From contig OY775910.1 of the NCBI GenBank assembly GCA_963675245.1, positions 800,001 to 864,000 on the forward strand: a stretch of DNA of 64,000 nucleotides, given 5' to 3'. Origin of the DNA: Acholeplasmataceae bacterium (lineage in GTDB: Bacteria; Bacillota_I; Bacilli_A; Acholeplasmatales; Acholeplasmataceae). The position numbers were made by a program, and so were the translations under genes. Below, in pieces: positions 43,919-48,430 of this stretch; the first letter of the stretch is position 1, and each line of letters opens with the position of its first letter. The notes under the pieces are model-generated. The model was not told the DNA's origin and made no database searches. It saw nothing but the letters and a program-made list of their open reading frames with translations.

Positions 43919-45502
43919 ATGTATGAATTTAAATTTGCGGATATCGGTGAAGGTATCCATGAAGGTAATATCTTAGAATGGAAATTCAAAGAAGGCGACG
44001 CTGTCAATGAAGGCGATACATTAGTGATCGTTGAAACAGATAAGGTCAATGCAGAAATTCCATCACCAGTCAACGGTAAGGTCCACCAAATCAATTTTAA
44101 GGTTGGAGAAACGGTTCATGTTGGTGAAGTGCTTGTCGTATTAGATGACGGTACTGCTGAACCAGCACCAAAGAAAGAACCACAAAAAGAAGTATCTAAA
44201 AAAGAAGAACCTAAAAAAGAATCTAAAGCACCAGAAGTCACGGGTGGATTTGAGTTTAAGTTTGCTGACATTGGTGAAGGGATTCATGAGGGTAATATTT
44301 TAGAGTGGAAATATAAGGAAGGTGACGATGTTAAAGAAGGCGAAACATTAGTCATCGTTGAAACAGATAAAGTCAATGCTGAACTTCCATCACCAGTTGA
44401 GGGTAAGATTTCTAAAATTAATTTTAAAGCTGGTGAAACCGTTCATGTCGGTGAAGTATTAGTCGTTATCGGTGGTAATGCTAAACCACAAGAAGAGAAA
44501 GCACCATTAAGCGAAGGCGATGATGAAAAAGCAGCAGGCGTTATTGGTGAAATCGAAGTTTCCCATGATGTGATGGCTTCGAGCACAGAACATGAAGAAG
44601 AAAAACCTACAAAAAAATCAATGGGTAAGGTGTTAGCTACACCAGTCGCTAGAAAATTAGCAAAAGATTTAGGTGTTGACATTCAAACCGTTAAAGGTAC
44701 GGGTGAGAATGGTCGCGTCATGAAAGATGACATCAAAAAAGCAGCTAATAAACCTCAAGGGGCAACACATGTCAGTTCACCTAAAGTGAGTGTATCAACA
44801 CAAGGTGATGTTGAACTTGTGAAGATCACAAACCTTAGAAAAGCTATTGTTAAAGCTATGACGTTATCTAAACAAGTCATTCCTCATACGGTTTTACTTG
44901 ATGAAGTCAACGTCGATAAATTAGTTGATTTAAGAAAACAAGTGAAAGCACAAGCGGCTGCACAAGACATCAAGTTAACATATATGGCATTCATTATGAA
45001 GGCTGTTGTTTTAGCTCTTCAAAAATTCCCTTGGTTTAACGCAAGCTTTGACCAAGAAAACGAACAAATGGTATTAAAGAAATTCTATAACATTGGTATG
45101 GCGGTTGATACACCTGATGGTTTAATCGTTCCTAATATTAAAGATGCCAATCAAAAGAGCATCTTAGAATTAGCGAAAGACATTCAAACTGTTGGTGATT
45201 TAACTAAATCAAGAAAGATTCAACTCTCTGCGTTACAGAATTCAACCTTTAGTATAACGAACTTTGGTGCTGCAGGTATCGCTGCAGGTACTCCAATCAT
45301 TAATCATCCAGAAGTTGGTATTCTAGGTGTTGGTAAGATTGAGCAAAAAGCTGTTGTTATTGATGGCGAAATTAAAGCTGCTTACACCCTACCATTATCA
45401 TTAGCAGTCGATCACCGTGTGATTGATGGCGCTGATGCTGGAAGATTCTTAAACTATCTCAAGACGTTGCTTAGTGATCCGCTCTTGTTATTGTTAAATT
45501 GA
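43919..45502 (+). CDS. pdhC: Dihydrolipoamide acetyltransferase E2 with two lipoyl domains
   Basis: Duplicated FKFADIGEG...ETDKV; ATPVARKLA; DHRVIDG. Confidence 0.94.
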   Translation: MYEFKFADIGEGIHEGNILEWKFKEGDAVNEGDTLVIVETDKVNAEIPSPVNGKVHQINFKVGETVHVGEVLVVLDDGTAEPAPKKEPQKEVSKKEEPKKESKAPEVTGGFEFKFADIGEGIHEGNILEWKYKEGDDVKEGETLVIVETDKVNAELPSPVEGKISKINFKAGETVHVGEVLVVIGGNAKPQEEKAPLSEGDDEKAAGVIGEIEVSHDVMASSTEHEEEKPTKKSMGKVLATPVARKLAKDLGVDIQTVKGTGENGRVMKDDIKKAANKPQGATHVSSPKVSVSTQGDVELVKITNLRKAIVKAMTLSKQVIPHTVLLDEVNVDKLVDLRKQVKAQAAAQDIKLTYMAFIMKAVVLALQKFPWFNASFDQENEQMVLKKFYNIGMAVDTPDGLIVPNIKDANQKSILELAKDIQTVGDLTKSRKIQLSALQNSTFSITNFGAAGIAAGTPIINHPEVGILGVGKIEQKAVVIDGEIKAAYTLPLSLAVDHRVIDGADAGRFLNYLKTLLSDPLLLLLN

Positions 45503-45633
45503 GGTGACTAACTATTAAAAGTCAAGTACTTTTAGTAGATAAACTGTAAAAACCTCCAATAGCCATAATTTTTAGAGGTTAGCCATATAACTGGATGATT
45601 TTATGACTTAACCGCCACAGTTTAAGTAATCAA

Positions 45634-46794
45634 TTATTGTAGTTTAGAGGAATCAAAATCTTCCTGATGTGTTTCGAGATGATGAATGACTCTAATGAGT
45701 TTTTTTGAAAGATGAACCAGTGCGACACGATGATGTTTACCCTCTTGTTTCTTCTTGGTGTAGTAGTCGTAGAAGACGGGGTTATAGATCATAACCATCA
45801 TTGAGATATTGATGAGTGTTGCTCTTAGGTACTTGCTGCCACGTTTAACCAGTTTACCTGTTGAAGACATGGTGCCAGACTGTCTGATGGTTGAATCCAG
45901 ACCTGCATAGGATAACATTTCAGCGGGATTGGAGAAAAGTGAAATATCACCATATTCTGAAACGATGACAGCTGCTGAAATGATTCCGATACCTTTAATG
46001 GTTTGAATCTTAGTTGGATATCGATGCATTAAAGAAATGATCTGTTTCTCAGTTTCTTCGATATCTTGATTGAGTTTCTCAACATAAGAAATTGAAGTCT
46101 TAAGTTTGAATAGTTGATGATCTTGTGTCACACCAATGGTTGATTTTGCGAGTTCCTTCAGTTTAACAAACTTCGGATAATTGAATTTACCCATCGATCG
46201 TTTACGAAGCTTATCGAAGTGGTCATCAGTCATCCTTGCTATTTTATCCGGTGATGAAAAGCGCTTCAAGATGTATAAAGATGTATCACTATAGCCTTGT
46301 TCTTGCATAAAAGGTTTGAATTCAGGAAAGATGACATCTAAGACCTTGGTCATCATATTGTAGTGTTTCGTCCGAATTGAGATGAGTTTAAAACGTAACC
46401 TGGTCAGTGATTTTAAAGCACTTATATGATAAGATTGATGATGATAGGCTTTGTAGTCTACAGATCTCATATAAGTTGAAATCATTTGTGCATCTTTCTT
46501 ATCCGTCTTTGTTTTTCTCAGTGAATGGGCTTCTCCAAACTTCTTCACGAGAAAAGGATTAATCTCCATGAATGAATATCCATGGAGGATAAGAAATGAC
46601 TTAAGGTTTTCTCCATAATGACCTGTGGCCTCTAAGCCTATTATCATTTCTTGCTTGACTAAAGAGTTAAAGTATCCTAATAGTTCTTTAAACCCAGACT
46701 GACTGTTCTCAAATGAGAACTGATGGCTAACTGTTTCGGTGGCGATGAAACAGTCATGCTTGTACTTTGAAATATCGATGCCGATATAGATCAT
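45634..46794 (-). CDS. IS110 DEDD recombinase/transposase
   Basis: GIDISK, LEATGHY, KTDKKDA (RuvC-like DEDD); YAGL...QSG Tnp domain; GGAGGT RBS. Confidence 0.95.
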   Translation of the reverse strand: MIYIGIDISKYKHDCFIATETVSHQFSFENSQSGFKELLGYFNSLVKQEMIIGLEATGHYGENLKSFLILHGYSFMEINPFLVKKFGEAHSLRKTKTDKKDAQMISTYMRSVDYKAYHHQSYHISALKSLTRLRFKLISIRTKHYNMMTKVLDVIFPEFKPFMQEQGYSDTSLYILKRFSSPDKIARMTDDHFDKLRKRSMGKFNYPKFVKLKELAKSTIGVTQDHQLFKLKTSISYVEKLNQDIEETEKQIISLMHRYPTKIQTIKGIGIISAAVIVSEYGDISLFSNPAEMLSYAGLDSTIRQSGTMSSTGKLVKRGSKYLRATLINISMMVMIYNPVFYDYYTKKKQEGKHHRVALVHLSKKLIRVIHHLETHQEDFDSSKLQ

Positions 46795-46819
46795 AAGTAC
46801 ACCTCCAAGAATTAAATTT

Positions 46820-47040
46820 GTACGTGTGGTAAGTCCAGCAGCGTCTTTATCTCATAATCATGTAAAAAGCGTCTTCCGCTAACTAACTATTGCTGATTAA
46901 AATAAAGACCGTGGTAAGCGTCACCTCAAAATAGTCTAGGTTATAAAAATATGACACAGATCCACAGTACATTATTAGTATATTAAATTAGAACGAAAGG
47001 AGTAAAGATTTAAAGACTTAAGTAACTAACTTAATACACT
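46820..47040 (-). ncRNA. Putative IS110 bridge RNA (target-binding loop ~46909-46967, donor-binding loop ~46843-46909)
   Basis: Four guide segments match the flanking target and the IS ends, enclosed by stems CTGTGG/CCACGG and GTCTTTAT/ATAAAGAC; boundaries approximate. Confidence 0.8.
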
Positions 47041-47059
47041 TTAAATCTTACATGATTAT

Positions 47060-48430
47060 ATGGCAACTTATGATGTATTAATATTAGGTGGCGGTCCAGG
47101 TGGTTATGTCGCCGCGATTAAAGCTGCTCAAAATGGATTAAAAACAGCACTGATTGAAAAAGAAGTAGTTGGAGGTATATGTTTAAATCACGGATGTATC
47201 CCAACAAAAGCATTATTGAAAAGTGCTAAAGTATATAAACAATTTAAACACGCGTCTGATTATGGTATCACGCTAAAAGGTGAGGTTGATTATGATTGGA
47301 CGAGTATGCTTAAAAGAAAAGATAAAGTCGTTAAGCAACTAACAGGCGGTGTTGCGGGATTACTTAAGAAGAATGGTGTTGATGTTTTTAACGGTTTTGG
47401 TGAAGTAGTATCTTCAACGAAAGTTAAGGTTAATGATCAAACACTTGAAACAAAAAATCTCATATTAGCAACAGGTGCCTCACCTGTCATTCCACCCATC
47501 CCTGGATTAAAAGAAGCATATGTAAAAGGGGTTGTTGTAACATCAAGAGAATTACTCCAAATTAAAGAAGCACCAACATCACTTGTCATTATTGGCGGTG
47601 GTGTCATTGGCGTAGAATTCGCAACCATCTTTAATGCACTTGGTTCTAAAATTACAATTATTGAAATGCAACCTGGCATTCTTCCACCAATGGATGATGC
47701 GATACGCACGCAATATACAAAACTTCTTAAAAAAGAAGGCATTGAGATTTTAACAAGTGCTGAAGTGAAAAAGGTTGATGATGGTACAGTTTATTATGAA
47801 CTCGATGGTAAACAACATCAAATCACAGGTGATACGGTCTTAGTCGCGGTTGGTATGCGTGCTAATTCTAAAGGTCTTGAGACGTTAAATCTTAAGATGA
47901 ACCGTGCAGCTGTAGACACAAACGATAAGCTTGAAACAAGTGTACCTCATGTGTACGCAATAGGTGATTTGAATGGGAAGTATATGCTCGCACATGTGGC
48001 ATCTCATGAAGGTGTGATCGCGATTGAAAATATTCTTGGACACGATAAGTCTATGAATTATGATCGCGTGCCTAACGCTGTTTATGGCTCACCAGAAATC
48101 GCGATGATTGGTAAAACCGAACGTGAACTAAAAGAACAAAATATTCCTTATAAAGCATCAACGTTCCCACTTATTGGTAATGGTAAATCTTTAGCAGACG
48201 GACAAAGCGAAGGGTTTATTAAATTATTAGTCAGTGAAAAGTATAAAGAAATATTAGGTGCACACATCTTGGCGTATAACGCATCTGATTTGATTGCTGA
48301 ATTAGGTGTTACGATGGAACTTGAAGGTACTGCTTATGAAATAGCGAATACCATTCACCCACACCCAACGCTATCAGAAATTGTGATGGAAGCGGCAGAA
48401 GGCGCAATCGGTAAACCTATTCATATTTAA
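47060..48430 (+). CDS. pdhD: Dihydrolipoamide dehydrogenase E3
   Basis: GGGPGGY, GGICLNHGCIPTK, GGGVIG.E, HPHPTLSE. Confidence 0.95.
   Translation: MATYDVLILGGGPGGYVAAIKAAQNGLKTALIEKEVVGGICLNHGCIPTKALLKSAKVYKQFKHASDYGITLKGEVDYDWTSMLKRKDKVVKQLTGGVAGLLKKNGVDVFNGFGEVVSSTKVKVNDQTLETKNLILATGASPVIPPIPGLKEAYVKGVVVTSRELLQIKEAPTSLVIIGGGVIGVEFATIFNALGSKITIIEMQPGILPPMDDAIRTQYTKLLKKEGIEILTSAEVKKVDDGTVYYELDGKQHQITGDTVLVAVGMRANSKGLETLNLKMNRAAVDTNDKLETSVPHVYAIGDLNGKYMLAHVASHEGVIAIENILGHDKSMNYDRVPNAVYGSPEIAMIGKTERELKEQNIPYKASTFPLIGNGKSLADGQSEGFIKLLVSEKYKEILGAHILAYNASDLIAELGVTMELEGTAYEIANTIHPHPTLSEIVMEAAEGAIGKPIHI

Follow-up and report, generated by a model that had tools for sequence, protein, structure and literature searches.

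An IS110-group insertion sequence of an Acholeplasmataceae bacterium with a very probable bridge RNA directed at translation starts

The 64,000-nt stretch of DNA analysed here (the window; contig OY775910.1 of assembly GCA_963675245.1, positions 800,001 to 864,000 of the forward strand) comes from an Acholeplasmataceae bacterium and contains an IS110-group insertion sequence of ~1.55 kb, which lies on the minus strand, in antisense to the two genes on either side of it, pdhC (stop codon at 45500-45502) and lpd (ATG at 47060). All positions are those of the window, and the strings and coordinates are based on a reading of 45300-47300. The genome (1.63 Mb, 34% GC) holds four copies of ~100% identity with differing flanks; they share the block 45507-47052, diverge outside it, and differ at no more than 5 of 1,550 positions, mostly at the junction, with only position 46037 inside the open reading frame (ORF). 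Counted with one core dinucleotide, most likely TG on the plus strand and CA in the orientation of the element, the unique part from 45507 to 47052 amounts to ~1,548 bp. The left end, upstream of the gene, is a noncoding stretch of 258 nt (46795-47052), and the right end measures 127 nt (45507-45633); according to Durrant et al. 2024 (PMC11208160), elements of the IS110 group have a left end of this kind, long and noncoding, before the gene, and a right end that is shorter. The element ends, TGTAAG... and ...TTAGT, carry no inverted repeat by reading of the sequence, no repeat tool having been run. The closest relatives of the element are assigned to Acholeplasmataceae or Mycoplasmatota. Overall, the element can be classed as an ordinary representative of a known family, IS110, with a built-in bridge RNA that is readable from sequence.

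The sole long ORF of the element, intact in the copy of the window, is predicted to encode a DEDD/serine bridge recombinase (Table 1). Its N-terminal part matches PF01548 (DEDD_Tnp_IS110) over profile positions 1-155 of 155 (3.2e-36), and a C-terminal Tnp domain is present as well (PF02371, Transposase_20; 4.7e-22). Solved structures with matching sequences are the ISCro4 transposase (9t56; 1e-16) and the IS621 transposase (8wt6; 1.7e-15). Specifically, the motifs IGIDIS at residue 4, LEATG at 54 and KTDKKDA at 96 align with their ISCro4 counterparts, and the conserved SG of RQSGT at 304 aligns with the ESG of ISCro4. The serine of this SG is what we take to be the catalytic one (S241 in IS621).

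The original prediction, drawn from the letters of the window, read a complete bispecific bridge RNA in the left end, and every string that it quoted is present. Segment 46920-46929 (GTCACCTCAA) is the exact reverse complement of the flank 45499-45508 (TTGAGGTGAC), while 46949-46956 (ATATGACA) agrees with the other flank at 47058-47065 (ATATGGCA) in 7 of 8 positions, the mismatch being an rU:dG wobble when the RNA pairs with the plus strand. Segment 46884-46891 (TAACTATT) equals the element end 45509-45516, and the reverse complement of 47048-47058 stands at 46855-46865 (TAATCATGTAA). The two proposed stems (46909-46914/46962-46967 and 46843-46850/46902-46909) and the AGCG/CGCT hairpin are likewise found. 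Its order on the minus strand, left target guide (LTG), right target guide (RTG), left donor guide (LDG) and right donor guide (RDG), agrees with the layout published for IS621 (PMC11208160), as does the strand sense of each guide.

The anatomy of the four guides follows from comparison with IS621, in whose bridge RNA the 5' guides pair with the bottom strand and the 3' guides with the top strand, each guide containing the core (PMC11208160), and handshake guides complementary to the non-cognate partner lie 3' of the right guides (PMC11208158). In the present RNA, the LTG shares its sense with the left target, TGCCATATAAT-CA, and would thus pair with the bottom strand, which is the sense strand of the gene and bears its ATG. 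All four guides can bind the core, the right guides with UG opposite CA and the left guides with UA opposite CA, that is, with one G:U wobble. The AC that trails the RTG is complementary to the GT that ends the left half of the donor, and the AUUA that trails the RDG to the TAAT that ends the left half of the target. This composition of guide, core and handshake nucleotides explains why the right guides had been taken for units of 10-11 nt: the RTG comprises 6 nt plus 2 of core and 2 of handshake, and the RDG 5 nt plus 2 of core and up to 4 nt that pair with the left half of the target. The left guides had been drawn too short, since the LTG measures 13 nt and the LDG 12 nt including the core; the 8-nt match of TAACTATT extends to the 10 nt ACTAACTATT (46882-46891 = 45507-45516), crossing the boundary proposed before.

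Four short matches in AT-rich sequence might instead reflect chance, end repeats or target duplication, in which case the left end would hold a promoter and leader only and the protein alone would select the target. We gauged chance with 2,000 dinucleotide-preserving shuffles of the left end, scored by the longest exact match to the 20-nt ends or flanks. A 10-nt match was reached in 13 and an 11-nt match in 2 of the 2,000 shuffles, which speaks against chance for the two longer strings, but the 8-nt match of TAACTATT was reached in 467 and is not significant alone. The 7/8 match falls outside this test, which counts exact matches only; the longest exact matches to that flank are 5 and 6 nt, lengths reached in 1,901 and 1,441 shuffles. 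Moreover, the Shine-Dalgarno motif of the targets is generic and resembled by many sequences. As two of the four matches are thus individually unremarkable, the case rests on context and on the relatives, in which the guides covary with their own flanks.

The covariation with differing targets that the original prediction had named as a check is indeed found: in relatives, the guides track their own flanks, for both target guides beyond every one of 10,000 permutations. Specifically, the RTG agrees with its own right flank at 4.60 of 6 variable positions and with non-cognate flanks at 2.63 (63 loci, 24 distinct guides), a difference that holds equally at one locus per guide; clear cases of RTG and flank are GGGGUG/CACCCC, GGAGUU/AACTCC, GGAGAU/ATCTCC and AGAAAG/CTTTCT. 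For the LTG, scored over the 7 positions adjoining the core, the values are 4.27 of 7 against 3.28 (48 loci, 26 guides). The handshake guide of the target loop is complementary to the last 2 nt of the left half of the donor in 63/63 loci, through three variants (AC-GT 44, GC-GC 17, UC-GA 2). For the handshake of the donor loop a loose check gives a left target ending in AT in 23 of 48 loci. On the donor side, 36 of 64 loci show full identity between the 8 core-proximal nt of the LDG and the right end of the element (mean 7.36/8), with the covarying variants TAGTTTGT (5, 5/5), TAGCTAGT (1) and TAGTTGGT (1), and the RDG reads TTACATG in all 13 close loci. The cognate matching already contradicts an origin of the matches by chance, as do the core and handshake nucleotides, complementary in every one of the 63 loci through two and three variants respectively, and a relative (L092) whose left flank follows its changed LTG; we regard that origin as scarcely credible. 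The RNA of the left end is very probably a genuine and complete bridge RNA of the IS110 group, laid out as LTG-RTG-LDG-RDG.

One relative and a sister subgroup depart from the common guides. In L092 both target guides are changed, the RTG to GGUAAUGAC and the LTG to CUGUUCUUGUC, and the left flank that follows the new LTG (CTGTCTTGT-C) has no start codon; the right flank was not recovered. This locus looks like an apparent natural retargeting away from gene starts. A sister subgroup (L054, L056-L060, L065, L067, L079, L084 and others) has the core CT, the handshake GC and a donor end ...TTAGC, together with an insertion of ~12 nt (GGTTCAGCGAGG) in the RDG region, and its RTGs read AGAAAG or ribosome-binding sites of the GGAGG type.

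The crossover was placed by comparing junctions. On the plus strand, all four copies read ...GAGGTGAC followed by TAACTATT... on one side; on the other they are constant through CTTACATG, continue with ATTA, ACTG, ACTA or TTAT, and then reach TATG(G/A), the start of the next gene. In the orientation of the element, with LT for the left target, the junctions read LT-TCA-TGTAAG... and ...AATAGTTAG-TCA-CCTC. TCA stands at both junctions in 3 of the 4 copies, the left junction of L004 being ACA, and among copies and relatives at 33 of 48 left and 44 of 64 right junctions, the sister group having CCT. In 63/63 loci, the two bases that follow ...TTAGT face complementary nucleotides in the RTG, through two variants (UG-CA 45, AG-CT 18), and for this reason we place the core at CA: the crossover most likely occurs within the repeated TCA, with the core at TG 45505-45506 and 47053-47054. 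The TA core proposed originally does not survive this comparison. TA is missing from the left-end junction in 2 of the 4 genomic copies and is thus no repeated core; the RTG is followed by GC, not UA; and the RTGs of the relatives pair with CA, or CT in the sister group, two positions inward of the earlier boundary. At the pdhC-lpd junction of the nearest genome (83% identity), used as an empty site, the sequence reads ...TTGAGGTGAATGAAATGGCAA, with a spacer so diverged that the exact base of the crossover does not follow from it.

The fold of the RNA was assessed with a covariance model (R1), built on an IS621-like fold from 13 aligned close left ends and searched against 80 sources, namely the four own copies and relatives, including 64 distant sources at 47-63% protein identity. 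R1 matched at 80 places in the 80 sources, mostly immediately upstream of the ORF. Complete matches were found in 60 of the 64 distant sources and 14 in close relatives and own copies; 2 were partial (L030, L032), and the 4 weak or incomplete ones in the distant set are L096 (5'-cut), L086 (29.5 bits), and L070 and L079 (misaligned or 3'-incomplete). Over 72 distinct sequences, 93.4% of cells are paired versus 81.2% in shuffles and at most 61% with the partners slid; compensatory changes occur in 18 of 25 pairs, and 200 cells are changed on both sides versus 52 in shuffles. All 4 pairs of the outer helix, which encloses both loops, show compensatory changes. The target-loop stem is paired in 100% of cells in the 13 close relatives and in 97.9% in the 72 sequences. 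The minimum-energy structure of the single 264-nt left end (z -2.67) pairs the guides with each other and with the end of the element, and was set aside as uninformative. The single-sequence fold also gives a long 5' hairpin at 46983-47039 on the minus strand (GUGUAUUAAGUUAG...CUAAUUUAAUAUAC), which separates the predicted transcription start from the target loop. The RNA of IS621 begins with a stem-loop too.

The flanks define a common class of target. In essentially all relatives, the right target half is complementary to a Shine-Dalgarno sequence, and 38 of 48 loci have an ORF that reads away from the element and begins with a start codon 4-6 nt from the crossover, several of the 10 misses having very short flanks. 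All four copies of this genome lie between a GAGGTGA ribosome-binding site and the ATG of the gene. Since the RTG reads the Shine-Dalgarno sequence and the LTG the spacer and start codon, landing between the ribosome-binding site and the ATG would follow; as judged from these sequences, the clade inserts at this place, antisense to the gene. The RTG is itself Shine-Dalgarno-like and may vary with local forms of that motif; its 24 variants include GAGGUG, GGGGUG, GGAGUU, GGAGAU and AGAAAG. In the window, the copy splits lpd (E3) from its GAGGTGA inside the pyruvate dehydrogenase operon, and by reading, no substitute ribosome-binding site for lpd is visible in the end of the element. In the literature searched, bridge RNA, Shine-Dalgarno and IS110 appear together only in an unrelated preprint. 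Additionally, a related element (L027, 84% protein identity) separates the Shine-Dalgarno sequence of an lpd-like gene from its GTG start, in a different genome with much more GC-rich coding; either the site was hit independently, or the insertion is old.

By analogy with IS621, from which we infer transcription, circle formation and recombination activity, the following course is proposed. The element would excise as a circle, whose joined ends would create a promoter, TTGACT-17 nt-TAAGAT, driving the RNA and the recombinase. TTGACT (45525-45520) and TAAGAT (47050-47045) come to lie 17 nt apart (13 + 2 + 2) once the ends join through one core, which is a consensus match only; a promoter split across joined ends is described for the family (PMC11208160, PMC11187229). 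The donor loop would hold the joined ends AATAGTTAGT-CA-TGTAA, the circle junction reading ...AATAGTTAGT-CA-TGTAAGATT..., and the target loop would hold a chromosomal site TTGAGG-TG-A-N3-6-ATG on the strand of the gene. Recombination would take place at the shared dinucleotide CA (TG on the plus strand), and the two nucleotides 3' of each right guide would act as handshake guides that, once the first strands have been exchanged, pair with the other partner. Insertion would then uncouple the gene from its ribosome-binding site.

Taken together, protein domains, fold and guide covariation support membership of the element in the IS110 group and the presence, in the left end, of a bispecific bridge RNA like that of IS621, and we consider it highly probable that the element is a bridge-RNA insertion sequence with the outer helix, target loop, donor loop and translation-start target described. 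Several points weigh against this interpretation or soften it. The four native sites match 8, 7, 8 and 6 of 12 LTG positions. The target-loop stem is nearly invariant and, for that reason, has no covariation support; pair counts from the wide alignment (A2) lean towards the IS621-like model, to which it was fitted; and for the 13 close relatives RNAalifold prefers another pairing, CUGUGG with a downstream CCACACG and GGUCU with GGACU, which is paired in 98.7% of cells versus 97.2% for the IS621-like fold. A search of 45400-47200 with Rfam 15 (E<=1) gave no bridge RNA match and one chance snoRNA match, the presence of such a model in that release not being established. Boundaries in the relatives were set by end-motif anchors of our own choice, the right one by a fixed right-end motif with at most 4 mismatches, and the core could be TC instead of CA, because T too is common to both junctions. 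Four public sequencing runs contain the stretch, all in the form of assembled contigs. The contigs of two genome runs contained neither a circle junction nor an empty-site joint, although contigs cannot show rare circles. A further run gave no contig here, and a metatranscriptome gave two contigs of a relative, of which the one over 46775-46927 could be DNA, and so is no sign of transcription.

The points on the fold raise the alternative that the RNA of the left end is mainly a cis-acting leader of the recombinase mRNA, which controls translation or stability through the CUGUGG/CCACACG and GGUCU/GGACU pairings, the guide matches being secondary or the two folds alternating as a switch. Besides its choice by RNAalifold, the strong conservation of the segment GCUGGACUUACCAC among close relatives agrees with such a leader, and the covarying outer helix is common to both folds. 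A leader, however, leaves unexplained why loop sequences covary with flanking host DNA; by reading of the alignment rows, the extension UGUGG/CCACA is lost in distant relatives, where only CUGU/ACAG can pair; and in the IS621-like fold 6 of the 7 pairs of the donor-loop stem carry compensatory changes. We judge a mainly cis-acting leader highly improbable. Inspection of 46815-46830 with 46962-46971 shows the alternative partner CCACACG of CUGUGG to lie ~30 nt upstream of the ribosome-binding site of the recombinase, and CUUACCAC occurs twice in the RNA; two RNA folds with a switch between them are possible.

A further alternative accepts a genuine bridge-RNA insertion sequence and holds that the copies in this genome are immobile, fixed relics whose RNA has no present function there. 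The contigs without circle or empty-site joint agree with it, as do the dozens of unoccupied candidate sites; those contigs, as said, are blind to rare circles. The near-identity of the four copies, with a single difference in the ORF, argues instead for recent spread, and the ORF of the window copy is intact (the other three copies were not translated). On balance we think relics unlikely and retain the interpretation as a bridge-RNA element.

Specificity has to be read from the same data. GAGGTGA occurs at 113 sites in the genome, with an ATG 3-6 nt downstream in 43, a count that includes the 4 occupied sites and the motif copies of the element itself, and native sites match the two outer RTG positions variably. 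With 43 sites of the candidate type and no more than 6-8 of 12 LTG positions matched at native sites, the left side is loosely specified, contrary to the high specificity that had been expected of long guides. More speculatively, a clade in Mollicutes-like and other low-GC Bacillota may have dedicated its target loop to translation-initiation regions, making every gene start a loosely specified landing site, and the alternative pairing of the target-loop stem might couple RNA folding to translation of the recombinase; we offer this as a tentative idea, with the balance somewhat against it.

Table 1. Features of the element and its target in the window, with the basis of each assignment.
Feature	Positions	Strand	Basis
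Insertion sequence including both core dinucleotides	45505..47054	-	four-copy comparison; common ends of relatives TTAGT/CA and CA/TGTAAG
Recombinase/transposase, 386 aa, DEDD RuvC-like and Tnp domains (predicted)	45634..46794	-	PF01548, PF02371; PDB matches
Bridge RNA structured core (predicted), outer helix from 5' strand 46968-46971 to 3' strand 46819-46822, both loops inside	46819..46971	-	model R1
Target-binding loop, stem CUGUGG 46962-46967 / CCACGG 46909-46914	46909..46967	-	pairing in relatives
Target-loop inner hairpin	46931..46944	-	4/4 pairs with compensatory changes; variants AUAG/CUAU, ACAG/CUGU, ACAA/UUGU
Donor-binding loop, stem GUCUUUAU 46902-46909 / AUAAAGAC 46843-46850	46843..46909	-	6/7 counted pairs with compensatory changes
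Donor-loop inner hairpin AGCG/CGCU	46868..46880	-	3/4 pairs with compensatory changes; 99.6% of cells paired
LTG: UGUCAUAUUUU plus core-binding UA	46944..46956	-	register by covariation, 48 loci; pairs with TGCCATATAAT-CA target
RTG: UUGAGG 46924-46929, core-binding UG 46922-46923, handshake AC 46920-46921	46920..46929	-	exact flank complement; covariation, 63 loci
LDG: AAUAGUUAGU plus core-binding UA	46880..46891	-	equals right end of element AATAGTTAGT-CA
RDG: UUACA 46861-46865, core-binding UG 46859-46860, handshake AUUA 46855-46858	46855..46865	-	pairs with left end of element, core and left half of target
Right target half: TTGAGG plus core TG; lpd Shine-Dalgarno, overlaps pdhC stop codon	45499..45506	+	sequence reading
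Left target half: ATTATATGGCA, spacer and lpd ATG	47055..47065	+	sequence reading, LTG comparison
Predicted -35 TTGACT, right end, facing outward, functional only in the circle	45520..45525	-	reading; CTTGAC conserved in relatives
Predicted -10 TAAGAT, left end	47045..47050	-	reading; TATAAT at the same place in distant relatives

Two further features were noticed along the element and its relatives. At ~45549-45581 on the minus strand, 3' of the recombinase stop, a hairpin AACCTC...GGAGGTT followed by a T run is conserved in relatives and, by eye, is probably a terminator. In L032, positions 1370-1500 are a truncated copy of the element in which the target loop and part of the donor loop have been replaced by two apparent tRNA genes, seen by eye only, that abut the remaining ...TTTTTACATGATTA... 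segment.

Given several copies and relatives, a complete bridge RNA can thus be read from raw sequence, down to its core-binding and handshake nucleotides. The shift of boundary and core by two to three bases is relevant to any reprogramming of the element. The promise of high specificity from long guides fails for the native element, as the LTG tolerates many mismatches and the RTG motif precedes many genes. Of modest interest are a widespread low-GC clade that aims its RNA guide at the gap between ribosome-binding site and start codon, here including that of lpd; the natural covariation support for handshake pairing (63/63 loci, three variants); and a core unlike that of IS621, CA in this group and CT in the sister group.

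Among known systems, IS621 is the closest in organisation. The system is described by Durrant et al. 2024 (PMC11208160) and Hiraizumi et al. 2024 (PMC11208158). The two elements share both protein domains, the sequence of the solved IS621 protein being significantly similar, and in both the long left end, which precedes the gene, contains the RNA, with the target loop first and the donor loop second (PMC11208160). Guide strand sense, the core within each guide and handshake guides 3' of the right guides also agree (PMC11208160, PMC11208158); for the promoter split over the joined ends, the present element offers the consensus match described. The differences lie in detail: the core is CA (or TC) here and CT in IS621; the left guides here bind the core as UA through a G:U wobble; where IS621 has 8-9 nt, the LTG measures ~13 nt and the LDG 12 nt; the handshake of the donor loop may be as long as 4 nt here; and the outer helix here encloses both loops. 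The protein similarity lies mainly in the N-terminal domain (residues 3-148). The targets differ as well, being REP elements for IS621 and a junction of Shine-Dalgarno sequence and start codon here. ISCro4 (PDB 9t56) is the best solved relative, with both domains aligned (residues 3-157 and 222-383), yet distant.

With respect to target class, the actinobacterial elements IS900, IS901, IS902 and IS116 insert with a fixed orientation into the gap that separates a ribosome-binding site from its start codon. They belong to another phylum and are set beside the present element by target class. In IS900, a complementary-strand ORF, hed, is reported to lack a ribosome-binding site and start of its own (PMC8141618); no hed-like ORF is present here, the longest plus-strand ORF within the element having 51 aa.

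The seekRNA of IS1111/IS110-type elements (Siddiquee et al. 2024, PMC11187229) is the same concept as the bridge RNA here under another name. In that work, an RNA from the noncoding region, which is upstream of the gene in the IS110 type, matches both target strands and is naturally reprogrammed among relatives, and a shorter RNA of 70-100 nt with the target-recognition regions is reported to be sufficient. Bridge RNAs with long guides as a class are already catalogued: a preprint (bioRxiv 10.64898/2026.10.21.760802, section 2.4) lists 32,190 loci with 12-40 programmable nucleotides (median 25, 19% above 28), and the present element would fall in the upper part of that range.

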